This document shows, one piece after another, positions 7,866 to 56,800 of a stretch of DNA of 64,000 nt (position 1 is its first letter; every line of letters starts with the position of its first letter). The stretch spans positions 988,004 to 1,052,003 of the forward strand of contig CAJINV010000012.1 of NCBI GenBank assembly GCA_905178155.1, read 5' to 3'. The DNA is from Amoebophrya sp. A120. Its lineage: Eukaryota; Protista; Dinoflagellata. The notes beneath the pieces are model-generated. The model did not search any database. It was not told where the DNA came from and saw only the letters and a list, made by a program, of their open reading frames with translations. Made by a program: the position numbers and the translations under genes.

Positions 7866-9462
7866 TTATATATACACAAGAACGGGCTCTCGGGGTGGTT
7901 TTGCAAATGATATTCGAGCTGTCGGAGGCTGAACCGCTATTACTGGAAATTCATTTATGCATTGCAAAGGCATGTATCTTCGTACGTAGTCGTAATCGTA
8001 TTAGAATTAGTTACAAATTTTGTTTAAAACAAATCAATACAGAATAAACATTAAATTAGAACTTTGCATAGCTGATTTCCCATGGGAAGTGGGTTTTTCA
8101 TGCGACTACTAGTACGAGCACGATACTTTTGCACAGCATACTACTTTCCTCGCGTTGGAACGACCTGTCGTGCCCTACACAATCATCGTGACCGTCCGCG
8201 CAATCGAGACTCGACGCTGCATCCACCCCGACAGGGTCGGCTGGCGTTGCCAGGGTGGCTGCGGTATTTGTCGTCGTCTCCAACTCGAAGCCCGTCGTGT
8301 GACGTAGGTGATCATGTTGAGATAAATTCATTATCAAGTGCAAACATGTCTAGGTCATCTGCACGAAAGTTCTAATGCGAGTTCCATCTCCGTCAGAAGT
8401 GGCGGATTTCATCAATAGGTATTACCACGCCAGGGACACGAAACTTTAACTTTTTAAAGAAGGGCTGTAGCACATAGCGTGCAACGCGCTCGCGCATGAG
8501 AGATGATGGCATTTGTGCATGACAAACGGCGTTGCCATGGGAGGTGGTCAGGGTCACTCGCTCCATGCATCACATATTCTCGCTTTCCTCGAATAAATAA
8601 TAAATTGCGCAATTCACAGGTTCATTCGTATTTTTTGTTCAGATCCAGACACATTTGCACACCATATGACTCATACTTTCGCTGAAGCCGCCGCCGATCC
8701 CCATTTTCTGTTTGACACAGTCCTCCTGACCGGCGCAAAATCCCAAGTGGGACAGCACGCCACCGCTTCCTAGCAGAAGAAATGAGAGTGAACACAGAAT
8801 CGCGACAGTTGTTATAATGATCACGAGTAAAAACAAACACACACCGCTCTGTGAGCAGGCGGACCGGCGCTTCATTGCTCCTACGCGACTTTTGGTGGTG
8901 CTGCTGCTCGATGAATAGAAGGCAGCAGCGGGTGGTTTGTCATCATCTGCTGGACGTCGTGCATCCAGATCATCGCATGATCTTGAAGTAGATCTTGTCT
9001 CAGCTGCGCTGCTGGGGTCAAGATCTTCACGATGATGCTGGCCTTCCGCTACTGGCAGCACATCAACATGGTCGATTTGCAGCGCAGCTGCATCTTCACC
9101 CGACCCTAGGAGGAGTTGAAGTTCACTTTCACATTCACAGCATTCTTATGCATTGCAAAACTATCGCACAGCTAGTACTACGAAATGCTTTTTTACAAAT
9201 CTTGGCAAGAACAGAAGTGGAATTTTGAATTTTGATTCAGGTTGCTGGCAAAGATGATATTTGTTGCGCGGCATGACTGCAATTTTAAGAATAAGAAATT
9301 TTACTTTTATATCTATGAGTGCGATACTTTTGCACAGGGTAACAACTCTGCTTCGCCTTCGTCGACAACCAATACTTGCTGCAACACACCAACATCAAGG
9401 ACCTCCTCGACGGAATCTTCCATGGTGATATCCTCGTCCCTCGTGGCGGTTACTACTTTCAT
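7866..9462 (-). CDS. Hypothetical single-pass membrane protein; 4 exons
   Basis: MKVVTATRDED... joins ORFs 8639-9061 and 8098-8343 in frame on removing three elements plus 5 nt; TM segment LFLLVIIITTVAILCSLSFLLLG; frame of last exon less certain. Confidence 0.6.
7956..8140. mobile_element. Introner, family B, degenerate
   Basis: tatgcattgcaaaggcatgtatc ... cgatacttttgcacagcata; DR decayed. Confidence 0.75.
8332..8666. mobile_element. Introner, family A, degenerate
   Basis: tatcaagtgcaaacatgtctagg ... tccagacacatttgcacaccata; DR decayed but +5 removal keeps frame. Confidence 0.75.
9147..9341. mobile_element. Introner, family B, degenerate
   Basis: tatgcattgcaaaactatcgcac ... gtgcgatacttttgcacagggta; +5 removal keeps frame. 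Confidence 0.75.
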
Positions 9463-11350
9463 TCTTGCGGTCGAAAAGATGGTAGGGAAGCTCGTTTATT
9501 TTTCCGCTTCTAGTCCCTTTGCAGGAACTTGTCGTGCAACATTTGGCAATCAGGACAACAAAATTGCTGCAGAAATTGAAATTCTTGAGATATGTATGTA
9601 ACGCGCGAAAAAATATTTTTCATACTGGAATAATTCACAACACAATCCTCGCGCATTAGGAACATCAAAACAAGCTATGATCCTGCCCTGTTTGTGCTTG
9701 CTTTCCGATAAAACGAAGAAATTGTGCACATGACATCAAACGGAAATGCTCGAAGAATCAAAAATGCTAATGCAATGCGCAAAACATGATAACATCAAAC
9801 TGTTCTCAAATTTGTTTTTGTGCGTAGAATTACATAGAGATAAATCAATGATAAAGAATGTTGATGGGACAGACCCAGATGAGAAAGTGAAAGAGATGAA
9901 TGGCAAATTGTAAAAAGTAAAACGAATTGTTAGAGGGGAAACGCTTCACGATTCCTGGGGAAGGAAGGAGGAAACACACCTGCGAAAGAATAAGAAAGAA
10001 AATTCTACATGTTCCACATTCCATTCAGAACTAGCTTCTAGTACCTCCCAAGAGGTGTCGCGCGCTTGCCAGAAAGAGAGCTAGGACTGCAACACGAGTT
10101 CGTTATTTTGCACTAATGAAACAAGCTTCGCACTCGTCCCCGAGGGAAGAGATACTGAAACTGATGATGATGAAAATAGCAAGCAACCTTTCGACCAGAG
10201 CACGATAAAAGTTGTAGGAAACACAGCTGTACCGAAAGTAAGAAACGCTCTCCACAAAAAAACCGCCACAAATAACCGAGTCCAAGTTTTTACCAAATCG
10301 ATGAAACGACAGCACACAGAAGTTTGCAGCAGATTGATGCAGTCAGTGGTTTCTCGTTTGTACCGATTTCGCAATCCGAAATTACAACAGACCACCACGA
10401 TAACATGCAATGTTGACACTGGGTAAGAAATGCACGATTCGAAAAGTACATCAGGAGAACGCGCACCGATCGGGTTTAATAGTGATTGTGATGTTCTATG
10501 AGAATGACGACCGCAGACCGATGTTGGCTTATCTGAAGGGACAACCGACACAGAAGTGAGACGGCAAGAAGAAGTGGTCATCTTCGATGCAGCATGTAAA
10601 GGAGACTTCTTGAGCGCACACAAGCTTAAAGAAGTACTTACGTACACGCTGCGCAATTTACCAGAGTAATTATCCAATTCTGACTGACCAACATTTCTTG
10701 TTCCAACGGACATATTACGTAGTGGAGTGTCAGATGCTACACGCTAGTGGATAAGTCACGCTCAGTTTTTTCTCATCAATGTTCCTGTTCGCTTGTTCCT
10801 CCCGAAAATCACCGTCCTCGCCGTCGCCCCCGATCATGTCCGCGATCCATACTCTTCTTGCAGCTGCAGATGAAGTAGGTGCAGCAGCGGTTTCTTCATC
10901 GCCTGGGCAAGCCGTCGTGACTATTCCCCGCAACCGAGCAAAGGCCGCTGTGATGCGCTGCAATATGGAAATGGAAAAAGTCCATCACTGTACTGTTTCA
11001 TTTCGCGTTTTGCATGTTTATTATCTCGCCTCGAAAATAGGTATTTTGATTTTCTTTCTTAAACTGCACCATTGCTTTTTTTTCCGTGCCTTTACAGAAA
11101 CGTGGACGCGCGGCTCTGTTTTGCGTAAAATTGAATTTCATTGTGATTGGTTTTTTCTCTTCCCATATTCAAATGCTTCTCGTCGATAGGAAAGTGCTGT
11201 TCCACCGGCAACCGTTTTCGCGTAAGAAACTCTCGTCCTTCTCCTGCTGGTGTAGTTACTTCTTTTCTACGTCCTCCTTCCGGCGAGGACGGCGATGCCG
11301 ATGAAGATGATGTTGGTCGATGTTGATGTATATGTATTTCTTTTTCATGT

Positions 11351-14300
11351 TCATGTACTATGCTTGATGTTGGCTCTACTTCCTCCTCTTGCTCGGGAAA
11401 ATTGAAGACGCTCTTCTTCTTCCGGGGACGTGGTTTGTTCTTTGCGCTAGTGTTCGCGCCAGTGCTTTATGCATTGCAAAAGTATCGTATTCGTACTCGT
11501 ATAAATGCATTACAAATTTCCTCAGCATGAGAAATGACGTTTGTAATGCGGATTTACCTTAAGGACAAGATTTGTAATGCAAGTCTTGCATTTATACGAA
11601 TACGAGGCTTTTGCACAGGATATGCTCTCTTCTCCAGCGATATTCGCATCGGACTCTTGTCCAGTTGTTGTGGATGAAACTCCTGCTCCGTCAGAAGGGA
11701 AAGAAACAGAAACTCGCCCGGCTGGCTCGATCGATAAACCTATTTTTTGGTTCCTCTTCACGACTCCTTCGCTGGGCAGCAACCTCGCCACCGCAAGAGC
11801 AAAACTTTTTGCGGCTCGCTGAGAATAATTTGTGATCTCGTTGGAGGGAAGAAATTTATCCCCTGTGGACAGCGGCGGGAGAGGAGAAGGTGTCGTCGCT
11901 GTGCTGTCGTGAAGCTCTGTTTCAGCACTAGTACTTTTGAATGTAGCGGAAAATGTGACACTAGCTGCGCTGTCTCCTCCCTCTACCGCCGGCACCATAT
12001 TGCTGGTAGTAGAAGAATTTGAAATTCTCCGCTTTTCTTCAGCCGCGCCAGAAACTAGTACATTTTCATCAGCCCCGACGATTCGAGACAGGCCCTCCAA
12101 CAGAAGGCTGGCGTCGCGAATGATTTTCCTCTTCCGATCCATATCTACTACCTCATCTTTCTTGCAAGCACCGAATGAAGGACGCGGCTTTGTTCCAACA
12201 TTAGAAGCAGGAATAGCTGCTCTAGCTGTTGAAGGTGTTGCAACATCGTCGGCTTCATGTGCTCTGTTCAACGTTGTTCTGGTCCCCGTTATGCTAGCGC
12301 CTTCTTGATTTGTATTTCCGGTTGTTCCTCCTGAAGCCGCTTGTTCCGTGGCATCACTTTTTGTAGGTTCTGGCTCACGCTCGGGGTCAACAACAACACC
12401 CGTGGAGCTACGAGCTCTACTTGCGAACAACCCGCACGACCCCAGACGTGCACACAGGCGGTCCTCCCACCAGCGATCATGATATCACGAGAAAAAAGTG
12501 TTACAGTTACACATTTGTTGGAGTAGTTTCTGCATCACAAATTTTCTCTGTGTGGCAGGGAAAACTTGTAATGCGAAAATCACAAGGGAAAACAGGAAGA
12601 AAATGAGGATCCCAAGCATTTCCTGCATGAGAGAGGTTATCTGTGTTGCCGGTCTTGCAACACAATGTGTAACTGTAACACTTTTTTCTTGCGATACATG
12701 AGAACAGTATTCCAGTACGGCTTCCGCGGTACTTCGCGCTGTCTCCGAGGGCGCACAGGTGCCGAGAAACCAGAACAACTTCCCCAGCATTTGCAGGTCG
12801 GTTTGCAGGATATGGTTGTAGTGCGGATCGTAGTTAATATCGTGGTGGTCCGGTCGTGGTGCAAAGCTGGAACTAGTATCCTGTGGTAGATGCTCGTGTT
12901 CAGGTGGCTCCCCATCCTCATCTTCCGCAGCAGCTCGTCTTGCATCTTCTGGATTACCAGCGTCTGGCCCTCTTCTAAGCGGCCTTTTCGTCACGAAACC
13001 TAATTCTTTCCCAGCAGGAGCAGCAAGCTCGTGCTCGTCTCCCTGCCGTAGTCGGGTCAGAACGAAAATTTTCTGCCGGATAAGACTGCATAAGGCCTCC
13101 GCGATTGGAGTCGGGGAAGTGGAGGTGTACGTGTAGTAGTTGCAGACGATGCTAGAAGAACGAATGGTAGCAATATCATCTTTTCCAGCTTGTTTTTCGA
13201 ATGCTGCTTGTTCTTCGTCACCTCGGCAGCTTGGTCGTTCTATGCTTAAAAGAAGCTCATGTTCATCTTCTTGCATCGTTCCTCCAACTCGTCTTCCTTC
13301 AGCGCTGGAGATTGTGCGGGCGGTGGTCGATGATTGTACCGTGGTAGAGGAGGCCGCAGATAATTGCGTGCGCATCGATGTCGGTTTTGCAGTACTGTCA
13401 TGACCAGCAGATGACACTAGTGCAGTTATAACAGAGCTCGTCGTCGGCTTGTGCGCAGTGACAGTCTCTCTCCGCCCAGTCGCCGTTATGCTTGTCCTCC
13501 CGGCCCGGGCCAGCAAGAAACACATCTCGATGAGATTCCTCCACCGTGGGTCGTGGGTGACAGTTATTATGACGTCGTTTTTGTCATAGTAATCTCTGGA
13601 AGTCGTGCCTTCCGAAGTGGAGGTGCTGAGCCTTGAAGATGTTCTTGACGGTAGAGAATAAAGAAGTTGGCCTAGTTCTAGTTGTCCAGCACCAAGGGGC
13701 ATCGCTTTATTCCCAGCATACTGAAAATCCCTTCGAATTAACCGCAAACCGACGCGCTCCAGGTCCTGCCATACAATCGATGAACGCTTTGGTTTGACAT
13801 CACTGTTACTTTTCATCTTCGACCAACGACTAGGACTACTGCTCTCCGCGGCGAGCGCCATTGCTTTCTCGCTTCCGGCGATACAGAACCAGTCTTCGAT
13901 CTTCTTCAAGTCAAGAATCGCCTTTCGGCTCAAGCCAAATTCGAGGTTTTCCTTCTGCAAAACTTGATCCTTTATGCATTGCAAAAATGTCTGGGTCTGG
14001 AAACTTGTAATGCTGAATAGCCACGATGGACTGTGCCTTGAAGTTTAACTGCAGTGCAGCATGACAAATCTTTCAAACGCTCATCTGTCATGCGCAGGAC
14101 GCATTACAAACCGAGTTTTTGCATGACGAAAGTGTAGCGCTTTATTTGCTGCTTTAAGCGATACAGGTTTTTTAGGAATGCGAAACACGCAATACAGGTT
14201 CAACCTTTCCAGACTCAGACATATTTGCATTTGATATCCTTCACCTCGTCCACGGTTTCCTTCCGGGTCGCCAACGCCTTTTCCACGTGTTGAAAGGTTG

Positions 14301-16516: not shown

Positions 16517-19500
16517 TCACCAGTACTTCCCATCCAATTCCGAGTGGTAGAAATCACTCACTGTGACAAACGCCCGTCGTCCGAAGTTCTGATCCACCCA
16601 ACTTTTGCTCGCAGAAGATGATGAGCTGCTACTTGATCCGCCTGCAGAAGAACTGCTATTTGACATTTCAGCGCAAGAACCTTGACCACCACCACCACTA
16701 CTGCTACTACACACCTGCGTGAGCTGATGGGGCGCGAGGACCAGCACCAGGTCGGTAAAATCGACCAGCACGAACACCACGTTCTGGCGCCAGGTGTGGT
16801 TCTGGAACCTGCCCACAGGGATGAAAGTGGTATTCAGCTGGATTTCGCACTGAAACAGCACCTTGCCGAGCAGTTTGGGATCCACGGTGGACGTCTCCGC
16901 GTCGAAAATTCTTTCGTAAAACTTCCGCGCTTCCGCCTCCTCCGCGTCGTAGGAAGTGGTGGGTTTTGTTGTTTGGTTGGGGGCGCAGAGAGGGAAAGAG
17001 GTAGAAGTAGCTCTAGAATCCGCCAAAATTTCCTGCTGCGCGTGAGGTTCTTGGTCCTTGACGAGGTTGTACTCCACCTGTAGTTCATCTTTGCTCTGGG
17101 ATGTTGACGGTCGTGTGAAGAATGCCGAGGCGTCAGCATGTTGATCTCCATGACGTTGTGCGAATGATGCCGTCACGGGGATCTTCTCGACGCCGATTTT
17201 GCCCGCACTACTTCTGTCGCTCACGTCGACCACACAACTACTGCATCCAGAACTATTGCCGCAGCCGCTGGGAAAAGCTATTGGATTTTTGTTGTTCTTT
17301 GAAACAAAGTCTTCCTCTTCGTAAAAACTGGAAGACGCTCTCCTCCGTCTTTTCCGGAGCAAATCCCTACTGAAGCAGCTAGTGAAAGAACTACAACCCG
17401 TGGTCGATGAACTACTACTATTCAACGCAGCTGCTAGGTATATCCTCTTCTGTTTTTCCCAGATTTTTCTCCCCTCCTCTTCCGGGATTTTCTTCACCAA
17501 CCGTGCGTTTTTCCCGATCATTTTCGCATACTTCGATTTCTCCCACACGTCTCGCAGATTGTTCAAGTTTCTATCCGAAACGAAGAACCCGGTGCGGTCC
17601 ATGGTGAAAATGCAGTTTTTCGCTGGCATCTTCCCCCGGATTAGCAAATTCGCGTAGTGCTGGAAGGACTTGGAGACCTTCGACAGCCGGATAAAGCTGG
17701 TGGGGAGTAAGAGAAATTCCAAGATCAGCGCCAGCAAGTCGGACTCAAAAATCTGCTTCTCAATGCTCTCGATCTCGATCCATTTTTGCACCGTCGGCGA
17801 ATTCTCCAGCTCATCGAGGTTTGACCCGAAGCTATTCGTCCGCATGGAGCAGGTGCGCTTGGACCGCGGGGAGGAGGTGCGGGACGACACGGACAACGTC
17901 GCTGTCGTTGCTCGGCTTCCGCTTGATGTTCCGGAGGACCAAGTCGTGGCTGCATAAGTAGAACTGCTGCTCATGCAGTGGTTGTGCTTGTCGATACAGA
18001 CGCCGACCGCTGCACTAGAGGTTCCTGGTCCGCCTAGTATTGCGTTGTTGTACAGCCGGGGCGTACTAGTGCCCGGCGCAGTAGTTGCACTACTAGTACC
18101 CCAACCATAACCCTTCGGTGAGAGGAGAAAGAAATGATCCTGCTGAGGATCCGCGGTAGTCGCTGGTAAGTTGTGCATTGCGTTTGTTCTACTGCTCGAA
18201 GATGCAGCCGTTGTCACTAGCTTGCCCGGTATACTCGCGAGCGATCCCTCGTCCGCGAAAAATTCTTGGTGGTATATTTCGTCCAACCTGGGCAAGAGCT
18301 CCACCGGGTGATGCTGATGCGCCGTCGATAAGGGAACAATTCCTGCACCAGCTCCTGTTGTTGGAGGTGTTGTAGAGTTCGTGGCTGTTCCTGTCGCTGC
18401 ACCCCCACCCGTCGTGTTTTCGCAAAAATTTTTCCCAATATGGAGTAGTTCGGCGGGCAATGCACCGAGTCGTGGCGGAGAAGTAGAAGAAGAAGAACTC
18501 CTCGCATTTAGCGTTGACAAAGTAGCACCACAAGAAGAACCACTCGCGGATGATGATGATGATGAAGCAGTTGCGCCTGCTGTGTTTGGTGTTCCCGTTC
18601 CGAGAAAAACGTTACACTCCTCTTGCAGCTCTTGTCCTCCATGTTGACCAAAATGCTGTGGCCCGCCTAGTACAACTCCTAGCGAAGAAGAAGATCCACC
18701 TTCTTCGCAATCGAAAAACAGCCGGTGCTGCAAGCTCCGCACCTGCAACAGGAACCGGACCCGTGCGCGGACTAGATCGGGATTCTTCCACTTCGGGCGA
18801 CTCGAGAATAATCCCCCGGCGTCGAAGGCGGACTATGAAAGGGAAAAATCCCCCCTCCCCATATCAAAAAGGAAATCTGTGATGCTGGATTTGCGTACAC
18901 AAATCCGATTTGTATTGCAGGAAGGCATACCGAGCAGATCCCCAGGCTAGGTAGGGGCGTATGGGCCTAGTTGTTCAGCATTGCAAACGGCTGACCTTTA
19001 GGCCCAACAACATGGCAAATCGCTTCCATAATGGGGCGGAAGCTTCTGCCCTTGCCTTCTTGCAAGAGAAATGTGATTTGTGACCTCAAATCAGCAACAC
19101 AAATCTTCGGAAAGATACCTTTTCGATATGGGGAGGGGGGATTTTTCCTCTCAATACGGACTGCCGGCGGTTCATGATGGGAGAGGAGGGGATTTTCGCG
19201 AGAATTGCGTCGGGTAGCGCACTCAGAAACGGCTGGCAGCATTCGATCGGGGTGGAGTCCACGCAGGAGGGAGGAGGACGGCGGAGTAGAGCAGTGGACG
19301 AGGTGGAAGTTGTAGTGCAGCTGGTCGTATCTTCGGACTTTTTTATGTGGGTTACAACCACGTTGTTCAAATGGTGTTGTTGTAGGACCTCCGACCGCGT
19401 TTGAGCTTCGGCCTTTATCTAGAGCTTTAACACCCGTTAGCATGAGAAGTGGTGAATTTGTAGTGAATTTTGCATGACAAATTGCAGATGAGTCCGCCGG

Positions 19501-21917: not shown

Positions 21918-22178
21918 TATCAACTGTAAAAATGTCTGGGTCTGGAAGAATGCAAGAATTTGTCATGCTTGTCTGGCATGACTCTGAACTCTGTGTTGCA
22001 TGGCCGCGAAGAACTTCTCCTCCCTGTCAAGCAAAAGCAAAAACGCAGTTTCCCATGCGGAGTGCGCAACTCAGGGCCATGGAAAAAACTTGTCATGCTT
22101 GGCAGCGCATTATAGTGAGTTCACTATTCCCTTTCTTGCATCACAAGTTTCCAGACCCAGACATTTTTACATTTGATA
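21918..22178. mobile_element. Introner-type element, family A, host transcript unclear
   Basis: tatcaactgtaaaaatgtctgggtctggaa ... ttccagacccagacatttttacatttgata; perfect DR tgttc. Confidence 0.95.
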
Positions 22179-22917: not shown

Positions 22918-25900
22918 TTACACGTTGATCGACCCTCCTCCGCCGCTTTCCGGCCCTACACCCCCTCCCGCGGGCAGCAACGGCACATACCCATCTGCTC
23001 GACTGCTTCTCGTTTCCGCCGTGACAGGGCCTCCACCTGGGCCGCTGCTACCCGAGGCAACCATCATTGCCCCGTCCCCCGTTGCAACAGTCGAGCCATT
23101 CGGCATTACCTGGTCCCCACTCTTCTTTTCATTTTCCTCGCCATTCCCGCCGAACAGTACACCCCCAGCACCGGAGTACAACCCGCGCAAATGCGACTTC
23201 CGCATCTCTTCGATGGCCAAAATCGGCAGAAACACGATCACAAAGGGCAACAGCAACTGCGGCAGTCCCAGTTTCCAGGTGCCGAGCAATTTCTGAAGCG
23301 GGGACCAGTAGACCACGGCCAGCCCGGTGAGATATGAATTGCAAAAGCATTGCATCGTACTAGAACTAGTATAAATTGCATTACAAACTGGCCCAGCATT
23401 ACAAATTGAATTTGTAATGCTGATTTGCCTTGAGAAAGAGATTTGTAATGCATAAATGCAATTAGTACGAGTACGATACTTTTGCACAGGATATGAGAAT
23501 CTCGAACACGATGAAGAAGTTGAGCCAGAAATTCGGTATCCCATGTAAAAACGTCCCCACACCATAGTCAAGATGGGAAATCTGCAACACAAATCTTCAC
23601 GTTTTGGGAGTTCTGCATGACAAGTTTCCATCTGCAGTGTAGTCCTGGCTAGCAAGGAAAGCCGCATGAGAAAGCCGTTTTCTCATCCTGTGTACAGCAT
23701 TACAAATGCCAAAACACAACTGGAAATGCCTCTCATGGAGATGCGCATTACAAGTGTTCCTGTCATTGCACAGGTGCATGACAACTATGGGGTGGGGATG
23801 TTTTTACACAGGATATTCGGGATCCCGTACTCAAACAGCGACTGACGGTAGGTGGTAGAGGCATACGCCGCGGCGAGTTGGCCGACCAGGAGGGACCAAT
23901 AGTAGCAGGTGGTCATTTCGCCGTAGATCTGATGTTGAGCAGGGGTATTGAGATTTATTTCGAGCAGTGCACGACTAGCATAGGCTGCTCATGTTCTGTT
24001 TTCAATGTTGCGCGTTTCAACATCATGAAACTGAAATCCGTCGAGCACACACACACACAGAGTAAGAGTTTGGCTCCAACACTGATGACACCAACACTTT
24101 TATCTATACCCGAAACTCATCGTCCGTGTATTCCTTGTAGCTTTTTCCGCTCAGGAACAAATCCTGGCTCTCCGGGAAAAACACCGTGATCATCAAGAAA
24201 CACCCTAACGATATGAACTGCAAAAGCATCGTACTAGTAGATATCGCATTACAAATTTGCTCAGCATTAGAAATGGAATTTGTAATGCGGTTTTACTTTG
24301 ATAGAAAGATTTGTAATCCATGACTGCAATTACTACGAGTACAATACTTTTGCACAGGATAAACGACTGCAGCGCCCCGATGTACGCGTAGGAGTAGGCC
24401 AACAAATCGTTATCCACCAACGGCTCCCGTTATAACAGTGCACAACTCCCCCTCGTTCTCATTTCTCATGCAAAATCCACAATTCCAGTTGCTCCCTTGC
24501 GTCACTATCATGCATGACAAATTCCGCAGGCCCAAACAGTACTACTGCGCTGGGCACTGAAATTTGCCATGCATAGGCTCCACGTGTGCTGGTGTTTGTA
24601 TTGCAAACAATTGCTGTTCATGCAATACAAATGAGGGGGAGGGGGGGTTCGGGTTGTGCACTTTCATACCCGTCTCGGGTGTCGCGGCTTCCGGTTCATC
24701 AGATTCGACTCCGCCGGCTGCGTTGCGTAGGCGATGGAGGTCCAAATGTCCGTCCCGATGTCGATGGTCAAAATTTGCGTGATCGTGAGGGTCTGCGGTA
24801 AACTGAAAATCCCGAGGAAAATCGGTAACGACTGCGGGAGTTTGGAGCACAGCGTGTACATGATGGACTTGCGCAAGTTGTCGGACGATAACCGGCCCTG
24901 CTCGACCCCGTCGACGATGGAGGAAAAATTGTCGTCCAACAGAATAATGCCCGCCGCGTCCTTCGCCACCTCCGTCCCCCGGATGCCCATGGCAATCCCC
25001 ACCTCCGCCTGCTTCAGCGCCGGCGCGTCGTTCACCCCGTCGCCCGTCATCGCGACGATAGAGTGGGCGAAAGTTTGGTACGCTTGCACGATGATCTGCT
25101 TGTGGAGGGGCGACACCCGGGCGAAAACGCAGCAGTACTGACACGCGTTGACCCAGAATTCCTTCACGGCCTGCGGATCGTGCTCCCCAAACTCGTCGTA
25201 GGTCGGTGCGTATTGCTCCACGAGCTTTCCCTCTATCACCTCGAAATCCTGCTGAATCTGCGACGTTGCCGTGGTGGCCGGAAGGGCCTGCAGGATGCCC
25301 AATTTCCTCGCAATCGCCCGGGCCGTGTCCATGTGGTCTCCCGTGACCATCACCACCTTCACACTCGCATACTGCGCGCGGCGCACCGCGTTTTTCACCC
25401 CTGGCTTCGGCGGGTCCTCGATCCCATACAACCCGGACAGCACAAAATCGTCGACCAACAGCGACCGCATGTCCTCCAATCGCTCCGCCTTGGCCAGCAG
25501 TTTCTCGTATTTTGTCACGAAATTCAACTGCATTTCCTTCGTGTCAAGTGCAAAAATGTCTGGGTCTGGAAAAGTGAAGACTTGTCATGCAGATTTTCCA
25601 TGACCCGTGAGGTCTGGAATGCGGGACTTAGCATGACAGACTCTGCGAGGTCTCCGCCATGCCTGTCCTGCATGAGAAATTCCCTTTCAACTTGGTCAAA
25701 AGTGGACGGCTTTTGGCACTCACGCAACACAGATTTTTGCATGCTTCAGATTTACCATGACAAGCTGCAATCTTCCAGACCCAGACATTTTTGCAATCCA
25801 TACTTCGTGTCCGCGAACGAAAATTTTTTCATCCCCACCGCGATCACCCGCTTCCCCTCCGACATCAGCGCTCGCCACTCCGACTCGATTTGCAGCTGCT

Positions 25901-28900
25901 GTTGCGGTATCGAATGCAAATATGTCTGGGTCTGGAAACCTGTGATGCTGGTTGGCGAATCTTGAGGACGCCACAATTGGGGCTCCAGCATGAGAAGTTT
26001 CTGAGGTGCTAGGTATTGTCTATTCTGCATCAGAAACTGCGTTTTTGCATGAAGACAGAAAAGCGAGGCTTTTGGGTGATGTGCATGACAAACTTGAGGG
26101 TCATGCTAGCCGAGCATGACAAATCGCGCATTCTTTCCAGACCCAGACATATTTGCAGTGCATATGCGGGTTCTGTTTCCGGTTGCTCGCGGACAAGTGC
26201 TGAAAAACCCGGTCCGGGGCGCCCTTGACGATCAATTTGGCTTCTGGTTTGGTCGTGTTCGTGTGGATCGTCACCATGTACTTGTTCGCACTGTTAAACG
26301 GGATTTCGAAAATCTTTGTCCAGTCTGCATGTTGAAACGAATCGGAGGAGGTCGTGGTGTTAAGATTAACGTTGCACGCAGACGCAAAGTAAATCGCCTT
26401 TTCGGTCGGAGAACCGCTGATCTCTTCCTATGGCGCTCTCAATCGTTACACTCTCAACTGTTACATGGATTTGCAATGCAAGAACAGCAACAGTGAAAGT
26501 GGCAATATTGCAGCTTTCGCATCACAAATTTACCACAGATTGTCATGCTGTTTAGCCCTTCGAAAATTTGTCATGCGAAGCACCTTGATCAAGTGGAGGC
26601 CGATGGCAATTTTCCATGACAAATCCGTGGCACAGTTGAGAATGTCACAGTTGAGAACGCCATACTTCTTTCGTGATGGCTGTAGTAGTTCTTGATGACC
26701 CGTTTGAAGATGATGTTGACGCGATTGGTGGGACGGGCCCGGAAGAAGACGAGGAAGACGAATTGGTCGTGTTCTTACCCGTTCTTGAAACCAAAACCGT
26801 CGTATTCAGCATCCCCGCGGCGAAAAGGTCCTGCTGCGAATTTTTAAGTGTACTAGTGTTGCTGGTAGTAGTTCCCGCCGCGTCAGCTGGAACTGCACCG
26901 CCGGTGCCAGAAGAGGGTCTACTTGCCGCTGCGGGGTAGATTTTCCCGCTCAGCGGGTCGAGCTTCACTCTCGCCGTCGCTTTACTGTTGGATGTGTTCT
27001 TGGTTTCCCCACCAGCACCAGCTCCTGATAAATCATTCACCACTACCACGTCGGTGACCGTCATTTCCCCGGTCGTCAACGTGCCCGTTTTGTCACTGCA
27101 GATCACTTCGACACACCCTAACGTTTCCACCGCGTCCAATTTGCGCACCAACACGTTCTTCACGGACATCTTGGAGCTGGCAATCATCAGCGAGATTGTT
27201 GCCGTCGGGAGCAACCTATGAATTGCAAAAGCATCGTACTAGTATATAAAAAATTTGTAATGCAATTTATACTATAAATTGCATTACAAATTTTTTCAAA
27301 GAGAAAACTGCAATTTGTAATGCTGATTTGCCTAAGATGGGCAATTTGTCATGCATGATTGCAATTACTACGAGTACGATACTTTTGCACAGGATACAAC
27401 CCCTCCGGAATCTGCCCAAACATCGCCGCGGAACTGGTTTCCAGGATCTGCCGGGGTGATTTTCCTACTTGAAATATCCTGTGCAAAAACATCCCCATCC
27501 CAGAGTTGTCATGCAGATCTGCAAGCACAAGAGCATTTGTAATGCGCATCCCCATGAGAGGCATTTCCCATCGTGTTTTGGAACTTGTAATGCTGTGAAC
27601 AGGATAAGGAGCTGGATTTCTTATGCGGCTTCTCTTGCTAAGCTGCATTATATCACAGCCTGCAACTTGTCATGCGTGGCTCCCAAAACTTTCAGGTTTG
27701 TGTTGCAAAATCCCCATCTTGACTCTGGGGTGGGGACGTTTTTACAAATGATATGAAACTCGGCAATCGCGGTGAGCAGCCCGACGGAGATGGCGATAAC
27801 CGCGATTAAGTGGACGAAATATGGATTGCAAAAATGTCTGGGTCTGGAACATTGGAACTTGTGATGCTAACTTTGGACTCTAGTAAAGTCTGTATTGCAT
27901 GACCAGCAAGAGGAGTCCGGTTGGGTGTGTCCTACGCGTGTAGGGCATTTGTCATGCGGAATAGGCACCAGGAAGGCTTCTAAAATCTGTGATGCTAGGG
28001 CTTCCATGAGCGACATTCTGTGTCATGCAAAAACAGCATAACAAATTTCGGATTCTTCCAGACCCAGACATTTTTACAGTTGATACAAAATGCTCCAGCG
28101 CAATTTCCAAACTGGACTTCGGCCGCTTCTTCTTCACGCCCGAAGCGATTTTCCCCAGCAGGGTATTGTCCCCGGTCGCGTAGACCAACACCGTGCAATT
28201 CCCCTTTAAGAGCAACGTGCCGTAAAAGACCAAATTGCTGCTCTGCATGGGTTATGAACTGCAAAAGCATCGCACTCGTATAAATGCATGACAAATTCAC
28301 TCAGCATGGGAAATAAAATTTGTAATGCGGATTTACCTTGAGAAAAAAATTTGTAATGCATGATTGCAATACGAGTGCGATACTTTTGCGCAGGATATGG
28401 GTTCGATTTCCCGGTTGGGGTCTTCGATTTTCTCCACCGTCCTCTGCTCCGGCAAACTCTCCCCGGTCAGCTATCAAATGCAAAAGTATCTGGGTCTGGA
28501 AAGTTGCAAGATTTGTCATGCATCTCGCGGACCACACTCATGGTCTGTAATGCAGACAGAAGCATCACAGATTTTTTGAGACCTTCCTCATGCCTTGTCC
28601 GCATGAGAAATTCCCGTTTTACCTAGCGAGAATTGGGTAACTGTTGGCGTTCAGGCAACACAGACTTTCTCGTGATCCAGCTTTCGCATGACAGGCTTCA
28701 TTCTTACAGACCCAGACATATTTGCAATGCATATCAGCGCCGCCTGGTCCACTTCCGTCCCCTCCGTACAGTAGACCACGCGACAATCCGCCGGGATGCG
28801 CGCCCCGGGTTCCAGGAAGCAAATGTCGCCGGGCACCAGCTCGGAGGGGGGCAGTTGCAGGTCTTCGCGCTGGTAGGCGGAGTTGGACGTGTCCAGGTCG

Positions 28901-48576: not shown

Positions 48577-51500
48577 TCATCTCGATAGCGGATTCAGCCT
48601 GGATTTCATGGCTTCCCAACCCCCTTTCATCAATGCTTTGTGAATCGCCTCGTCCCGCAAAGTGTCCCTCAATAACTGCCGGAAATTGTCGTTGATCTTT
48701 TCATCCTGCCAAATGTCCAGTGCAAAAGCATCGCACTCGTAGTAATTCTCGCAGTCATGCATCACAAATCTGGTTATCACGGTAAATCCGCATTACAAAT
48801 CGAATTTGTTGTAATGTTGCTGAGCCAATTTGTATTGCAAGCTGTACTAGTACGATACTTATTTTTGCAATGCATACCGTATTTCCTTAATCAGTTGCTT
48901 CACCTCTTCAAACGATCCTGCCAACGCTATCATATGTAAAAACGTCCCCACCCAGAGCTGTCTTCATGCAAATGTACAATGACAGGAACATTTGTAATGC
49001 GCTTCTCCATGAGAGGCACTTCCATTCGTGTTTTTGCATTTGTAATGCTTTAAACAGCATGAGAGAGTGGCTTTCTAATGCGGCTTTCCTTGCTAGCCAG
49101 AACTACACTGCAGATCGAAACTTCTCATGCAGAACTCCCGAAACTTCGGGATTTGTGTTGCAGACTTCCCATCTTGACCATGCTGTGGGGACGTTTTACC
49201 ATAGGATAAATGCTGCCGCCGCGAAATCCCCGTCGCCAAGTAAGTTTAAAACGTACGTGAAAAACTCGTCGAGCACAATACTGGACTGCTTGTTCTGTGG
49301 GTCTTGCGCAGCTAATGTTTGAGATATGCACTGCAAAAGTATCGCACTCGTACTAATCGCACTCATGCAATACAAATTTTTTTCTCAAACCAAATCCGCA
49401 TCACAAATTTCATTTCTCATGGAGCAAATTTGTCATGCGATTTATACTGTCTATACTAGAAGTACGACGCCTTTGCATTGCATATGAGAAGTTGTACCAC
49501 TACCATCCGGATTTCTTTCCCCCGCGATCGGTGTGACCGCCGGCGTGGTCGCCGATGCACGCAGGTTGAAACCCTGCCGCAAACCCTCCACGATCGCGAT
49601 TACCATCCCGCGGGACATCTTGCTGCGCATTATCAACTGTAAAAATGTCTGGGTCTGGAAACTTGTAATGCTGAAAGTGAAAAATGATAGACGCACTGCA
49701 ATACGCAGCGATGCATGACAAATTTTTTGGCTGCTATGTCTTACGTATTCCGCATGGCAAACTGCGTTTTTGCATGACAGGTAAGAGGTGGGCCTTTTCG
49801 TGCCTATGCAACACAGATTCTCGAGTCATGCCAGACAAGCATGACAAACTTGCATTCTTCCAGACCCAGACATTTTTACAATCCATACGCATCTCCGTAC
49901 TGTTAAATGCCTGCACGAAAACGGACGAAACCTCGCCCGCCAGTGTGAACTCCTTCGGGGGCTTTATCCCAAGGAAAAACGTCCCCAGCCGCCCTATAGC
50001 TGTCATGCAAATCTGAATCCTTAAAATGTGGCTTCTCATGCGAAGCGGCGGCCCCATAGAAGCAATTTTTAGTTCCGTTTTGGAATTTGTGATGCTCGAT
50101 TTAGCACGGCTATATGCTAGATCTGTGACGCTGCTGAACTGCTTTTGCACAGGATTACACTACGAGGCCAGCCTTCATGTCATGCGTAGCTACAACCAAA
50201 GCCGGTTGATTTGTCTCGCAGACTTTCCAGCTTCGCTTTGGGGTGGGGACATTTCTGATACACAGGATATCCTTATTGCGGTCATCATTTATCTTCCTGT
50301 CTTGCGCTTGCTGCGACGCGGAACCCGAGCCGACTGACGACGAAGATCTCAGCACTTTGTCCGCCCTTTTCGCGAACTCTTTACCTCTTTGTTCATCTTC
50401 TTCGCGTCGCGGTAGTGGAGCTGCTGTATCGTCTTTATCAGTGTCAAAGTCTTCGTAGAGAAGTTCGGTCGACGGCAAGGGGGAAAGCGCCCTCGTTCCT
50501 TGTTGCTCGTGCATGATTTTGCTCGTCGAAGCGCCGCTGCTATTCGTCTTGTACCCTGTTATCCTGTCCTTCACTGACGGACTGGCCGGGATGCTTTTGG
50601 ACCCCGGGCGCGACCACTCCTCTGCAACCTCGTCGTCATTCGCCGAGCTGTCCGAGGAGCGTGTGGGGTAGTTCTGCAGCTGGTTAGAAGTATTAGACTG
50701 GTCGGGCGGAAGATTTTCATTTTCACCGCCGGCCTGTTCATCCACCTCGTCCGCAAGTAGTGCCGCCCCAAGGCCAGACGAGGAGGAAGACGACGTGCGT
50801 AGCAAGCACTTTCCCTTCCACTCATCTGTTTCCATATACCGCAATTTCGCCTCCAGCACCACGCCGACGAAGTAATTCTTCACTCTCTTATGAACTGCAA
50901 AAGTATCGTACTCGTTGTATAATAAATGCAATACAAATTTCCTCAGCATGAGGAATAAAATTTGTAAAGCTGATCTACCTCAAGAAAAAGATTTGTAACG
51001 CATGATTGCAATACGAGTTTACGATACTTTTGCACAGGATATCTCTCTTCTATCAGCAAGTTCTCCTCCTTGCTGGGCTCTTGGATTTCGCTCCGGATCA
51101 TCCCAACTAATTCTTTGATAAACTCCTCCGTGCCAAACATGTTTGTGATTGTCGTCGCGAGTCTTCCCTCCGCCGCTTGGGGAAGAATCAAATTCCCCAC
51201 AGACCGCTGTCTTATCCTGAGTAAAAACGTCCCCACACCAGAGTTGTCATGCAGATTTGCCATGACAGGAACATTTGTGATGCGCAACCCCATAACAGGC
51301 ATTTTCAATTGTGTTCGGGAACTTGTAATGCTGTAAACAGGATCAGCAGATGGATTTGTGATGCGGCTTTCCTTGCTAACTTGCACTACCTTACGGACCG
51401 AAATTTGTCATGCGTGACTCCCAAAACTCCTAGGTTTGTGTTGCAAAGTCCCCATCTTGACTCTGGTGTGGGGACGTTTTTAATCAGGATATGTCTGTCC

Positions 51501-52397
51501 CCTGATTCTCTCACGTGGTCGTTGGCCTTTTGTATCGCCGTCGGAAAGGCTTTTATCATATCCTGCGCAAAAGCATCGTACTCGTAGTAATCGCAGTCAT
51601 GCATTACAAATTTCCATCCCAAGGTAAAACAGCATGACAAATTCCATTGTTCATGCTGAGCTAATTTGTATTGCAATAACTACTAGTAGTACCAGTACGA
51701 TACTTTTGCAGTTCATATATCAAAGCGGACTGCAGCATTGGATTCACTATCAAATGTAAAAGTGTCTGGGTCTGGAAACTTGTGAAGCTGGGTGGCGTCT
51801 CATGATGAGGCTACAGATGCTGGCTCAGCATGACAAGTTTCTGACCTCCTAGGTATTGCCTATTCTGCATGACAAACTGCGCTTCCGTATCACAGAAAAG
51901 CGGAGCTCTTGGGTAACGTGCGTGACAGATTTAAGAGTCATGCCAGACAAGCATGACAAACATGAATTCTTCCAGACCCAGACATTTTTACAGTTGATAT
52001 TCACCACCGGGTCGATCATTCTGGAGAAGACCGGGAGGGTAAACTTCGAGAGAAACGGAAATTTGTCAAAGAAAAGTAAGGTGGCGACCGTCAGGAGAAA
52101 AAGGGTTAATGTGAAGGTAAACTGCTGAAAAACCGCGCCGAGTTCTATCCAGGAAAAAACACCCACTCCCATCCAATTTGTCATGCAAAGCATGCATAAG
52201 TTGCAGTGTTTGTCATGCAAAAAATGGATGGGGATGGGGGTCTTTCCCTGGATAAGTTCCAGTGTAGTACTATCTGCGCCATAATCTCCTGCAGTAGACC
52301 TCGTCCCGGAGAGGAGTTCTGCTTGAGATGAAAACAACATCCCGTGGTTTTCACCAGGTGTGCCTGCAGAAGAGGCAAGACTCACGTCGGAGGCCAT
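48577..52397 (-). CDS. Hypothetical membrane-anchored protein; 10 introner introns
   Basis: Exons join with element +5 removal (TLEL|GAVF, PVVN|PMLQSALI|KAFP, EER|VKNY, NKD|PKEF, EMR|SKMS); TM segment FTFTLTLFLLTVATLLFF. Confidence 0.75.
48714..48876. mobile_element. Introner, family B (left end TGT)
   Basis: tgtccagtgcaaaagcatcgcact ... tttttgcaatgcata; DR ccaaa/ccgta. Confidence 0.85.
48928..49208. mobile_element. Introner, family C
   Basis: Family C TIRs; DR aacgc/aatgc. Confidence 0.92.
49325..49484. mobile_element. Introner, family B
   Basis: Family B TIRs; perfect DR tgaga. Confidence 0.93.
49631..49887. mobile_element. Introner, family A (young subfamily)
   Basis: Family A TIRs; perfect DR cgcat. 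Confidence 0.95.
49965..50269. mobile_element. Introner, family C
   Basis: tatcccaaggaaaaacgtcccca ... tggggacatttctgatacacaggata; DR ggctt/tcctt. Confidence 0.85.
50889..51041. mobile_element. Introner, family B
   Basis: Family B TIRs; perfect DR tctct. Confidence 0.95.
51213..51491. mobile_element. Introner, family C
   Basis: tatcctgagtaaaaacgtccccacaccagagt ... actctggtgtggggacgtttttaatcaggata; perfect DR tgtct. Confidence 0.96.
51559..51717. mobile_element. Introner, family B, reverse orientation
   Basis: tatcctgcgcaaaagcatcgtact ... agtacgatacttttgcagttcata; perfect DR tatca. Confidence 0.95.
51748..51999. mobile_element. Introner, family A (relative of 25908-26164)
   Basis: Family A TIRs; perfect DR ttcac. 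Confidence 0.95.
52146..52254. mobile_element. Introner, family F (109 bp, smallest)
   Basis: tatccaggaaaaaacacccactcccatcca ... tggatggggatgggggtctttccctggata; perfect DR agttc. Confidence 0.92.
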
Positions 52398-52416
52398 GAT
52401 TGTGGACCTGCTTGTA

Positions 52417-52679
52417 TATCAAATGCAAAAGTGTCTGGGTCTGGTTAGAATGCAACTTGTGATGCTGCGTTTGGATTCCAAAAAAATCTGTACTGCATGA
52501 GCAGCAAAGGGAATGCGATTTGTGCTACGCGGGGAGTGCATTTGTCATGCGGAGTAGACATCAAGATGCCCTTAAAACGTCTGCGATGCTACGGCATGCA
52601 TCACAGACGTCATGGCTCACGCAAAACGTGCATCACAAGTCTCAGAATCTTCCAGACCCAGACACTTTTGCAATTCATA
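52417..52679. mobile_element. Introner-type element, family A, probably in 5' UTR
   Basis: Family A TIRs; 4-bp DR tgta; ~20 nt upstream of ATG 52397. Confidence 0.9.
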
Positions 52680-53839
52680 TGTAGTCAGAAGCTGTGGTCT
52701 CTCTACTTCGGCATCGTGGTGTCCATCCTCAGACAGGAGTTAAATTTTACGGTAGTTTAAGTTTTGAAAGATGATACTCCCTATAAAAAGCGAGGGAAAA
52801 GAATAGCATTTGCAAGCTGTCGCTTTGAATATATCTGCCAAGCTACCACTGAGCAGGAAGAAACAAAACAAAATAAGTAGGTGGGTCGCCGTCGCGAGTG
52901 GTTTAATAGAGAAAACAAGGAAACTTCTGTGCTGACACCGAGACTGCCAACACCGGAATAAACGGGAGATATTTATTCGAAATCATGACGGACTGATAGA
53001 CTTCTGTTTAATATATAATATCTACGCGCAGGAGGAGGCGGGAACGAATATAGTAAATCTAGCATTGCTTTGCATCGAACTATGTTGTACTGAATAGTTA
53101 AGTGCGAAGTACTTCAAGCGGCTTTATTCGAGCAACAAGATCAATAAAATTCTCATGGGAGTGGTCCTGCGAGCCAAAAACTGCAGAGCTTGATACAATG
53201 GAAAACATAGGATCAGAATCCGACGGCAGGAAATCCAAATGATCCTGGCGCCTCCTCAACTATCACACGAATCGGATCTCAGTCGCTGTTCAGGAACTCA
53301 GGAACGTTTAGAAAAGGAGAAAAATTGAACCGACTGAATGTTGCTGTTGGTATAGTACTCTTCTTGACCTAGGAACACGAACACGGCTCGTCCCCGCAGG
53401 CTTTCGCTTTGACTTTGTCGCTACAATAGCGACCCTGAAATTGGCGGACGGCACCATGGCGGGCTTTTCTAAAGTGCCTGCCACTGCCAGGAGGTCCGAA
53501 TATAATTACACCAGCTTTACTTCGTCACATCACTTTTGAAGAGGCTTCTGCTCTTTGAAATCAAGTTCAAGAGGAAAGACGTGATCAGGCAGGTTTTCAT
53601 TTTTCTCTGAGAAGGTAGTAGAGAAAGAGATTCAACAATCGGCGGAAAAATTTCTTCCTCCACTGGTCGTGTTTCGTTACCGAAGGACTCATCAAAGTGT
53701 TGCCTTCAGCGAGGAAAATGTAGTAAGTACTTACAACTACCCTGTAGCTGCACTATTACGCCGATGAAAGAGGTCCTGCAGGAGCACGTTGTGATCTACT
53801 ACTGGTCGGGTCGAAGAAGTAGATCAAGCACATTGTGAT

Positions 53840-56800
53840 CTACTCTAGCACATCCGGCACCTTCCCTGATTTCCCCATCTTTTGCTCTGCTTTCTTGGGC
53901 GGGAGCTCGAGGCTTTCTTCCATGGATTTCTTGAAATCAAAATCCTCCTCCTCTTCCTCGCCTATTTCCACTTCCACGGACTGAAAATCCTCCCCAACCC
54001 CGATCTGCTGCCCCGACATCTGTATCCCGCCGGACTTGTCTCCCGTGTCTTGCGACTCGAGCTGCTGGGAATAGGCCATCTGCACCGATCGCTCGCTCGG
54101 ACGCCAGAGGTACATGATGACGGTGAGGAGGAAAGCGAAGCAAACGTGGGACAAAACGTCGGTGAAAATGTACCTTTTAACATTAAAGAAGGTTATTTTC
54201 GATTTGTCCTGCGGCTCCTCAACAAGAACGGCTAAGTATAAATACGGGGAGAATGATTTTTACTCTTCTCGTGCCCTCCCCGTGGAGGAACACTGAAAGA
54301 CTACCTAAGACATTCGTAGTCAGCTCCACACAACACAAAGACAAACTTATTCGCTTCTATTTCTAGTACAGTAAGTCGGCTGTACCTGGTCCGCCAATTC
54401 TGCGCCAATTCCGTCCGCCTGACCACAATTGTCTCGTACCCAACGAGCGCCATCGCGATGCCGACCACCAGCACCAGTGCGAGCCGCAGATTTTGGTACA
54501 CTTCTGCCTTCACCATCTGCCGACTGTTTATGCATTGCAAAAATGTCTGGGTCTGGAAGAATGCAGGACTTGTCATGCTTGTTTGGCATGACTCTTAGAT
54601 CTGTGATGCGTAAGCAGGACCGGGGCCTCTTGCCTGTCATCTTTCTTCTTCTTCTTGGAAACTGTCATGCTATGGCTGCGTATAGTATTGCGCCCACTAA
54701 GTATTCACAGACTTGCATCACAAGTTTCCAGACCCAGACATATTTGCAGTTGATACTGTTGTTCAGATACCCAATCGTTTCCTGCAAGGCGTGCAGAATC
54801 CACACGTAGATCAGGGAGACGAAAAAGGAACCCGGTGTCTATGCATTGCAAAAACATGGTCTGGGTCTGGAAGACGAGTCCAAGGCTTGTCATGCTAGTC
54901 TGGCAGGGCACTGAGCTCTGTATTGCGCGGCCACGAAGAGCTCCGCTTTTCTGTCATGCAAAAATAACTCAGTTTCTCATGCGAAATACGCAACACAAAG
55001 CTGCGGAAAAGTCTGTCATGCTTGGCGGTGCACTACAGTCGTGTTCTTACTATTCACTGAGACGCATCACAAGTTTCCAGAACCAGACATATTTGCATGG
55101 GGTAGGGTCACGAGTAAAATGATTTTCCACGTATCCTGCACTCCGACAACTCTGTTATCCTGTGCAAAAGTATCGCACTCGTAGTTGTAATCGCAGTCAT
55201 GCATTACAAATCTCTTTCTTAAACCTAAATCCGCATTACATATTTCGTTTCTCATGCTGAGAGAATTTGTCATGCGATTTCTACTTAGTGCGATGCTTTT
55301 GCCATTTATATCTGTCCTGCATCAACAGTGCCATCTGCCGGATCCCGTCGGCGAAAATGAATGCACCGACTAGAAGGAGGACCTGGGTCAAGGTTTAATT
55401 TATTTCCTTTCTCTCATTATACAGCTGAAATGTCACTCTATACAAATCTGCTCTGATGCAGGGTTGATGTACCGGAGCACTTCCTGCACTTTATTCAAAG
55501 TGGTATCTTCCTAATCCTATATGGCCGAAAGATTGGTTATGCATCACAAACAGTATATATACCTTTGCCGTGATTTTGCCGTCCAATCTTGGCGCCGTTA
55601 CTCCCAATCCCAAGCAGGCCAGTAACAAAACCCCGTAGCTCAGCCCCTGTTTGGTCACTGTTCCAAAGGAGGCGAGGGCCATCATGGACCACCATCGGTG
55701 ACCAAGGTAATTCCAGTGGAAGAGCGAGATGTACCTGATAAAATTTGTTGCGTTTTCACGAGGAGAGAAGCTTGTTCTCCACACCATGCATGAAGCGATT
55801 GCACGAACGCAAAAGAAGAAATTAATTTGTCCATGCATTTTTACGATTGTTCGAAATCAAAAGTCACTGTTTTCATGCAAACAACTGTCTCAAAAAACCA
55901 GTTTATTACCAGCACGCCGCTTCTATCAGACCGGCGATAATGGCCACGGTGATGAAGTGGTGAATTTTGAAGAGCACATCCGACCACTTGTGGCACCAGA
56001 CGCCCTTATGCACTGCAAAAGTATCGCACTTGTACTACAAGTGCGATACGAAGGGCGAAATGCGGATTTACCTTTAGAAATGAATTTGTAATGCATGATT
56101 GCAATCACTACAAGTTGTAGTGATTGCAATCATGCATTACAAATTCATTTCTAAAGGTAAATCCGCATTACAAATTTGGTTTCTCATGCTGAGGGAGTTT
56201 GTCATGCATTTATACGAGTACGATACTTTTGCAGTTCATAGCCCCAGACGACCAGCAACCCAAGGTAGAGGAACATCAGGTAGAGGTTATCCCGTGTAAA
56301 AATGTCCCCACCCCATGGTCATCAAGCTGGGAATTCTGCTAGACAAATCGACAAGCCTTGGCTGTTGCGCATGACAAGTTTGGGCCCGCAAGGTGCTAGT
56401 CGTGTTTAGCTAGCGCAGCAGCTACTTCACAGATCGGGCACATTATGCTGATTGGAGCATCACAAAACTCAAAACACCACTAGAAAATGCTTCTCATGGG
56501 TCTCCGCATGAGAAACATTTTGAACATGCAGATTTGCATTACAACTCTGGTGGAAAGAGACGTTTTTACACGGGATAGAGGTAGAAACTCAGTTTCGGCA
56601 GTTCCTCCCCGGGCAGATACCCCTTCGACGATATCGTCGAAAGTTCCCCGGAAACAAAAGCCGGCATGGTACTCCCATCCTTCTCGTTGCAGTTAGTCTG
56701 CAAAATATAGTACAGCCCCCCGGTGGGCGGTTTGAAGACGGTAAAATCTCGCTGATAGGTCTATAACCCGCTCAGGTGTTACAATCTCAAACGCTGCAAT

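Follow-up and report, generated by a model that had tools for sequence, protein, structure and literature searches.

A single 1+4 register fits the cuts around hairpin-ended introns in a 64-kb stretch of the Amoebophrya sp. A120 genome

The stretch of DNA analysed here (the window; 64,000 nucleotides (nt), positions 988,004 to 1,052,003 of contig CAJINV010000012.1) belongs to the dinoflagellate Amoebophrya sp. A120, and two of its exons are 100% identical to deposited proteins of this strain. Its genes are interrupted by conventional GT-AG introns and by hairpin-ended elements that begin with TAT and end with ATA. A single register, with one cut 1 nt before TAT and the other 4 nt after ATA in transcript sense, fits every joint considered here at which such an element is skipped.

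Elements and transcript joints

Elements, named below by their first window coordinate, were found by inverted-repeat scans and a position matrix of 92 arms, in which TAT is followed by seven freer bases and then at least three A. In all, 66 candidate TAT..ATA elements were detected and 65 kept for counts; candidate 38407-38602 was excluded for its 0/5 repeat match and weak arms. Candidate 23946-24108 was rejected because the deposited model P0001 places a GT-AG intron there. Sequence alone led to revised ends for 41418 and 49965, in the latter case before the reads were consulted, whereas for 3018, 6867 and 7696 at least one end was fixed only once the joints were known.

TAT is present in 60 of the 65 5′ arms. 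An exact 5-nt flanking repeat borders 37 elements and a match of at least 4/5 borders 50, with mismatches at repeat positions 1 to 5 numbering 10, 13, 12, 16 and 8. Exact repeats of 2, 3, 4, 6, 7 and 8 nt were found at 3, 1, 1, 0, 0 and 0 elements, respectively, which puts the 5-nt repeats above chance. Five families of 4–17 copies, in both orientations, take in 46 of the 63 elements shorter than 800 nt. Traits of miniature inverted-repeat transposable elements (MITEs), or non-autonomous DNA transposons with terminal inverted repeats (TIRs), are present: TIRs, a duplication of constant length, and no visible coding capacity. The search for a transposase covered 4 frames, all taken from the longest two elements, and gave no Pfam match. 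The elements are transposon copies that are non-coding, end in hairpins and are flanked by 5-nt target-site repeats; judged by sequence, they belong to the published A120 introner family (PMC7789003).

The motif GCAT[GCT]ACA lies sub-terminally and, counted on both strands, occurs 160 times within elements (19.5 kb) and 14 times in the 44.5 kb outside; it is common to unrelated families and is a candidate protein-binding site. The long elements 33652-35738 (2.1 kb) and 57071-58760 (1.7 kb) have normal arms and perfect 5-nt repeats, and the latter, consistent with removal of the element plus 5 nt in the deposited protein P0010, carries tandem ATATCCCCAG-like repeats. Element 56007 contains a near-perfect 72-nt palindrome at 56042-56186, as if two half-elements were joined head to head.

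Joints were read from contigs of runs X1, X2 and X3, which derive from one sample and are likely RNA by an automatic guess. Those considered here are 15 of the 25 joint rows for window 1-20000, of which 13 skip a single element, one connects two and one goes back 72 nt, and 15 of the 64 rows for 48560-57060, where 11 skip one element (X1 and X3) and 4 link different elements (X7/X8 only). The X1-X3 contigs cover exons and skip elements, and their depth falls to zero in several bins that lie beyond the spliced frames. Contigs of X7/X8 span introns and intergenic DNA and contain none of the 11 joints at 48560-57060; these runs therefore behave as DNA. At 20 of the 24 element-skipping joints the coordinates of the contig records leave no room for additional letters, while the letters in between are not known at joints 191, 524, 896 and 18828. 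Low-depth X1/X2 contigs also read through elements unspliced at 2984-3528, 48895-49177 and 49983-50300, which would be pre-mRNA, retention or DNA carry-over. The step back of 72 nt, at 19342-19413 in X1/X2 contigs and with 3 extra letters, perhaps reflects a tandem copy collapsed in the assembly.

Cuts at 1+4, independent of repeats and of GT-AG

The length removed equals the element plus 5 nt (hereafter +5) at 24/24 of these joints. The placement of the 5 nt can be described by u, the number of nucleotides removed before TAT in transcript sense, with 5-u removed after ATA. The register u=1, or 1+4, fits all 24 joints; u=0 fits 17 and is excluded at 7, u=2 fits 12, and any other value fits 12 or fewer. 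Six joints are free of ambiguity (196, 529, 901, 7696, 7956 and 49965), and all six are 1+4. Among the 13 informative elements that had been defined before the reads, the naive chance of a common register is 1.7e-6. Since the 5′ cut falls 1 nt ahead of TAT and the 3′ cut 4 nt past ATA, the exons keep bases 1-4 from the upstream repeat copy and base 5 from the downstream one. This addresses, base by base at mismatched repeats, the question of which copy is retained, a check that had been proposed when these elements were read from sequence only. The register also appears to be retained when an element is turned around: 7956 (exactly 1+4) and 48714 (which excludes 4+1) are opposite orientations of one family, in which the link of 7956 is the weakest, and both fit 1+4 in transcript sense.

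Deposited proteins agree with +5 at 13/13 elements inside the model of P0001 and at 7/7 inside that of P0010. At 30103, deposited P0001 reads KTTGSASS, which as annotation rather than reads is compatible with u=1 or 2 only. Homologues of P0001, including one from A25, align without gaps across 8 of the 12 junction windows listed, as expected if +5 removal restores the sequence before insertion.

The same joints bear on what directs the cuts. The sequence-only reading had proposed a ruler rather than homology, from weakly matching plus-strand flanks at 8332-8666 (TTCAT/TGACT, 2/5), 9147-9341 (ATTCT/ACAAC, 1/5) and 30103-30293 (CAACG/GGGTG, 1/5); these matches are as weak as described, and removal of element plus 5 nt does open a frame of 1162 codons through 8332 and 9147 and one of 725 codons through 30103. 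However, +2 and +8 are equally in frame, so the frame fixes the length only modulo 3, and frame restoration was rejected as proof of +5. It is the X1/X2 contigs that settle the exact +5 at 8332 and 9147. At 56007-56240 (plus-strand flanks GCCCT/GCCCC, 4/5), retention of the whole downstream copy indeed creates TAG in the frame of P0010, a deposited PF06814 protein; base 1 of the upstream copy must be exonic, and the TAG argument shows no more than that. The length thus stays at element plus 5 nt after repeat decay, as that reading held, and the ruler it took to be 0+5 is 1+4. Its further proposal, a drift of the downstream copy as intron, may hold. The variable offsets or cryptic GT-AG junctions that it named as contrary evidence did not occur at the joints considered.

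Skipping driven by homology, whether through template switching of reverse transcriptase or DNA excision between direct repeats, or through cryptic GT-AG sites, is largely refuted and has a very small chance of being right. Hairpins with short flanking repeats are a classic substrate for template-switch artefacts, and repeats are perfect in 37/65 elements. Yet +5 is kept at 10 joints with 1–2/5 repeat matches. At 52417-52679 a perfect 4-nt repeat adjoins both ends, yet 5 extra bases are removed (skip 268 = 263+5); similarly, a 7/8 repeat at 196-442 would allow an in-frame removal of +8, and +5 is removed instead. In-frame GT-AG pairs are available within 15 nt at 10/24 sites and all are unused. 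The DNA-like runs lack such joints, and the joints restore long frames. The cuts are independent of the repeat match, of better repeats of other lengths and of nearby GT-AG.

The ends of the introns carry no familiar signature. GT..AG is produced in no register permitted by any of the 24 joints, and GC..AG only at 4313, as 4+1. Joint 191-444 as a plus-strand GC..AG intron was rejected, with neighbours and frames on the minus strand. In the 1+4 register, 15 different 3′ dinucleotides occur across the 65 introns, with GT..AG in 0/65. Minor (U12) introns have a donor of the RTATCC type; an NTATCC start occurs in 16/65 elements, and the 3′ ends in register are AC in 4/65 and AG in 2/65, unlike U12-type acceptors.

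Alternatively, the register could be variable, with contigs that show the major form only and selection that keeps the form in frame. Rare variants are dropped from contigs, 59 joint rows lie beyond those considered, and variable sites are described in the accessible text of PMC7789003. This explanation is improbable, since the equally frame-keeping +2 and +8 never appear among the 24 joints, and the six unambiguous joints are identical to the base. Further, +5 is found at 901 and at 52417, upstream of the first in-frame ATG; the latter position means that +5 there was not selected by frame.

Table 1. Coordinates of elements, introns and host genes in the window.
Feature	Element	Intron or gene span	Strand	Observations
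Intron	196-442	192..443	-	7/8 repeat ignored; ends CT..GC; joint 191-444 unambiguous
Intron	529-797	525..798	-	repeat 2/5; ends AT..AA; joint 524-799 unambiguous
Intron	901-1206	897..1207	-	repeat 2/5; probably 5′ untranslated region; ends TT..GG; joint 896-1208 unambiguous
Intron	3018-3498	3014..3499	-	repeat 1/5; joint 3012-3499 allows 0+5, 1+4
Intron	4313-4537	4309..4538	-	mismatch at repeat position 5 excludes 0+5; joint 4308-4539
Intron	4775-5114	4771..5115	-	position 4 mismatched; 2 further stem pairs possible, same cut; joint 4769-5115 allows 0+5, 1+4
Intron	5394-5747	5390..5748	-	repeat 4/5; joint 5388-5748
Intron	6867-7638	6863..7639	-	772-nt element; right end set after joint; repeat 2/5; joint 6860-7638
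Intron	7696-7912	7692..7913	-	left end set after joint; repeat 1/5; ends AT..GC; joint 7691-7914 unambiguous
Intron	7956-8140	7952..8141	-	repeat 2/5; ends GT..TG; joint 7951-8142 unambiguous, X1 and X2
Intron	8332-8666	8328..8667	-	1+4; repeat 2/5; joint 8325-8666, skip 340, allows -1+6, 0+5, 1+4
Intron	9147-9341	9143..9342	-	1+4; repeat 1/5; joint 9141-9342, skip 200, allows 0+5, 1+4
Intron	18834-19156	18830..19157	-	perfect repeat, register not readable; joint 18828-19157
Predicted intron	30103-30293	30099..30294	-	repeat 1/5; deposited P0001, 725-codon frame
Intron	48714-48876	48710..48877	-	family orientation opposite to 7956; joint 48708-48877 allows 0+5, 1+4, 2+3
Intron	48928-49208	48924..49209	-	repeat 4/5; joint 48922-49209
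Seven introns	49325, 49631, 50889, 51213, 51559, 51748, 52146	49321..52255	-	perfect 5-nt repeats, each skipped +5
Intron	49965-50269	49961..50270	-	mismatches at positions 4, 5; ends AT..GC; joint 49960-50271 unambiguous, X1 and X3
Intron	52417-52679	52413..52680	-	perfect adjacent 4-nt repeat ignored; upstream of first in-frame ATG; joint 52411-52680
Predicted intron	56007-56240	56003..56241	-	repeat 4/5; 5+0 gives TAG; 0+5 to 4+1 fit P0010; exons of the gene uncovered in X1/X3
Host gene		2861..9495	-	spliced frame of 1162 codons; the single exon scanned gave no clear Pfam family
P-type ATPase gene (P0001, 1651 aa)		22921..31215	-	13 elements and 2 GT-AG introns
Seven-transmembrane protein gene, PF06814 (P0010, 509 aa)		53843..59262	-	7 elements and 4 GT-AG introns

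Once spliced, every long frame in window 1-64000 lies on the minus strand, like the unidirectional clusters reported for Amoebophrya. GT-AG introns and hairpin introns alternate inside the genes at 53843-59262 and 22921-31215, and GTA opens each of the six GT-AG introns that the P0001 and P0010 models imply. The P0001 GT-AG intron at 23929-24109 (minus strand) opens with G-TATAG; 17 nt ahead of its AG lies an ATA motif that faintly resembles an arm, and this intron is possibly a former element that became canonical.

What may set the register

We favor, with a probability of about 0.6, the explanation that hairpin elements are always cut 1+4, likely by a relaxed major spliceosome that works without U1 on an N-U-A donor and an AG-free acceptor set by distance. 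The enzyme itself is inferred. According to the accessible text of PMC7789003, A120 has all but 6 of 89 spliceosomal proteins together with U2, U4, U5 and U6, whereas U1 was not found and minor small nuclear RNAs are reported absent. The top non-canonical motifs in its Table S4 start with N-T in 9/9 cases for A120 and with TT in 9/9 for A25, starts that may be partly shaped by aligner placement. A spliceosome is invoked because the published components are present, because of the N-T starts, because canonical introns start with GTA, and because T at intron position +2 and A at -7 are constant.

By this route, the 5-nt repeat would be a by-product of insertion with no part in splicing. The T-A of the element itself would provide intron positions +2/+3, the long hairpin would draw the ends together in place of U1, and the invariant A at -7 would be a candidate branch point and the origin of the distance to the 3′ cut, by analogy with Giardia. 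As 1+4 equals the duplication length and the ends are alike, insertions in either orientation and any phase would be removed without a scar, which would explain the spread of many unrelated TAT..ATA families into exons. A more far-reaching version can be put forward tentatively. The A120 spliceosome may have lost U1, the G at +1 and the terminal AG, with TAT as the donor core, the first A of ATA as the branch point and the acceptor 7 nt downstream, so that every TAT..ATA element would be scarless at any site, phase and orientation.

The two constant bases were followed in another assembly. A motif scan of a metagenome collection gave at least 163 loci (L001-L163), of which the 80 listed share one contig prefix. 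The same element families appear there as 209 distinct elements among the matches listed, and 158/209 have a perfect 5-nt repeat, a share that is higher than in the window and biased by the exact-motif scan. Exact 6-mer repeats number 0/65 in the window and 0/209 among those matches, and no match longer than 330 nt was found between the window and the fetched loci. Strands were assigned with a codon model that had the window as its training set and a self-check that is not independent; calling by frame length alone was discarded as noisy. Across the window and these loci together, +2 T is conserved in 228/228 stranded elements while its mirror position changed 7 times (p 0.015), and -7 A is unchanged in 228/228 while its mirror position changed 6 times (p 0.03). 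Both asymmetries are weak hints only.

Structure might set the register instead. Arms are predicted to pair at a mean probability above 0.5 in 42 of the 62 folded elements, and a structure-reading endonuclease with a ligase at the hairpin foot, as proposed for euglenids, could make the same 1+4 cuts. This is the main rival of the relaxed spliceosome, unlikely as we judge it. A 3′ end with no dinucleotide signal (15 kinds in 65, 0 GT-AG) suits it, as do the failure to find U1 in A120 (PMC7789003, accessible text) and the euglenid introns, which likewise show a fixed asymmetric offset (PMC3935182, accessible text). However, the first two terminal pairs have a probability of at most 0.2 in 8/23 verified folded elements, including 529, 7696 and 49965 with their exact 1+4 joints. 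Chance extension of the stem by 1–2 pairs at 9/24 joints leaves the cut in place, and +2 T agrees with the canonical introns of these genes, whose donors are GTA. Weak terminal pairing and a cut unmoved by stem extension suggest, as far as imperfect folding models allow, that the anchor is the terminal TAT/ATA motif rather than the physical stem foot, and that strict stem pairing is probably not required for the register. The 3′ cut had been placed about 5 nt past the hairpin base in the sequence-only reading; its fixed distance is borne out, with 4 nt after ATA as the value and the motif as the better reference point.

A register that follows the TAT/ATA motif better than predicted pairing would also suit an end-binding protein, for example one derived from a transposase, that reads terminal and sub-terminal motifs on RNA or chromatin and sets the cuts, whether or not the spliceosome takes part; the hairpin would then be incidental. 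The enrichment of GCAT[GCT]ACA in elements points the same way. Such a protein seems distinctly unlikely: none has been identified, 4 frames of the longest elements gave no Pfam match, and a transposase was not found in A120 by the source paper, as far as its accessible text goes (PMC7789003). In the one family pair that can be tested, the register follows the transcript and not the orientation of the element.

Several points weigh against the relaxed spliceosome and its constant register. An A at -7 that served as branch point would lie within the predicted stem, and the upstream consensus is poor, with T at -9 in only 24/65. Splice sites are called variable relative to the hairpin in the accessible text of PMC7789003. 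A preference for purine at +1 in the window (29/37, p 0.003) was not replicated in the other assembly (62/108), and an asymmetry of +3 A was lost with looser detection (2 vs 5 changes, p 0.45). Most of the +2 T asymmetry is explicable by G-U pairing, and the window alone supplies 5/6 of the mirror changes behind the -7 A signal. Regarding the joints, the letters in between are not known at three of the six exact ones (191, 524 and 896), X1-X3 are a single sample whose RNA status is guessed and whose contigs lose minor forms, and off-register cases could exist among the remaining 10 and 49 joint rows. The genes tested all share one strand, which for the gene at 1-1300 was assigned from a frame of 120 codons.

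Related systems and significance

The systems compared here are taken from the accessible parts of the papers cited. The A120 introner elements of PMC7789003 share with ours the inverted repeats starting with TAT, direct repeats of 3–5 nt, non-canonical borders and the many families. They are described with sites variable relative to the hairpin, a border that is not known and repeats 1–5 nt from the sites, whereas one 1+4 register that does not need the repeat is seen in the window. What that text says about 4-nt repeats in this strain may be due in part to the 1+4 register. The MITE-derived introners of Micromonas, Aureococcus, Symbiodinium and Polarella (PMC9860276; bioRxiv 2020.10.14.339549) are alike in their TIRs, target-site duplication, and scarless removal of the element with one duplication. 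Those introners take G(T/C/A) and AG from the element or the target, which limits the sites, while A120 needs neither G at +1 nor AG.

The nonconventional introns of euglenids (PMC3935182) are similar in that a hairpin joins the ends, borders lack GT-AG, a fixed asymmetric offset was worked out from repeat-free introns, and a MITE origin is proposed. Nevertheless, that lineage is unrelated, and in its introns +4/+5 pair with -7/-6 through a CA/TG motif, whereas in A120 +2 pairs with -5 within TAT/ATA, +4/+5 are T-[C/G] and -7/-6 are A-T. The offset is 1/4 here versus 3/5 in euglenids, and terminal pairing is predicted in only part of the A120 elements. Giardia and Trichomonas introns with a fused branch point and acceptor (PMC6679479) have an invariant distance from branch to acceptor and long-range pairing of intron halves, and the Giardia donor similarly has a relaxed +1 followed by TATG (VTATGTT). 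They retain AG and a strong branch motif, while A120 elements lack AG and the branch point proposed for them is a guess. Introns of Fritillaria borealis (PMC11282704; bioRxiv 2025.08.15.670264) are also derived from transposons with TIRs and target-site duplications and are handled by a modified major spliceosome, but this species retains U1 and the preferred ends AG-AC and AG-AT, whereas the last four intron bases are free in A120. IS3EU/GingerRoot DNA transposons (PMC10045372) share the TA..TA termini; they usually make a 6-bp duplication, compared with 5 for the A120 elements (0/65 exact 6-mers), in which no transposase was seen.

The fixed A120 register is absent from the accessible parts of PMC12130899, PMC12005148, PMC11453091, PMC12787238 and bioRxiv 2025.08.15.670264, and a literature search, with most subscription journals outside its reach, found no paper that states it. 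What we report is a sharp splicing rule, new for an element family that was already known; 24 junctions from a single sample support it.

Non-canonical introns account for more than 60% of those in A120, and their borders and mechanism of removal are stated as open in the accessible text of PMC7789003. The fixed 1+4 register turns seemingly chaotic borders into one rule and explains the missing dinucleotide signature. It would permit the re-annotation of tens of thousands of borders and points to bases of interest, namely the U at +2 and the A at -7. It also offers a natural example of acceptor choice without AG, and explains how transposons could fill exons at no cost to the protein. If true, a U1-less ruler on a TAT donor would be a general licence for transposons inside exons.

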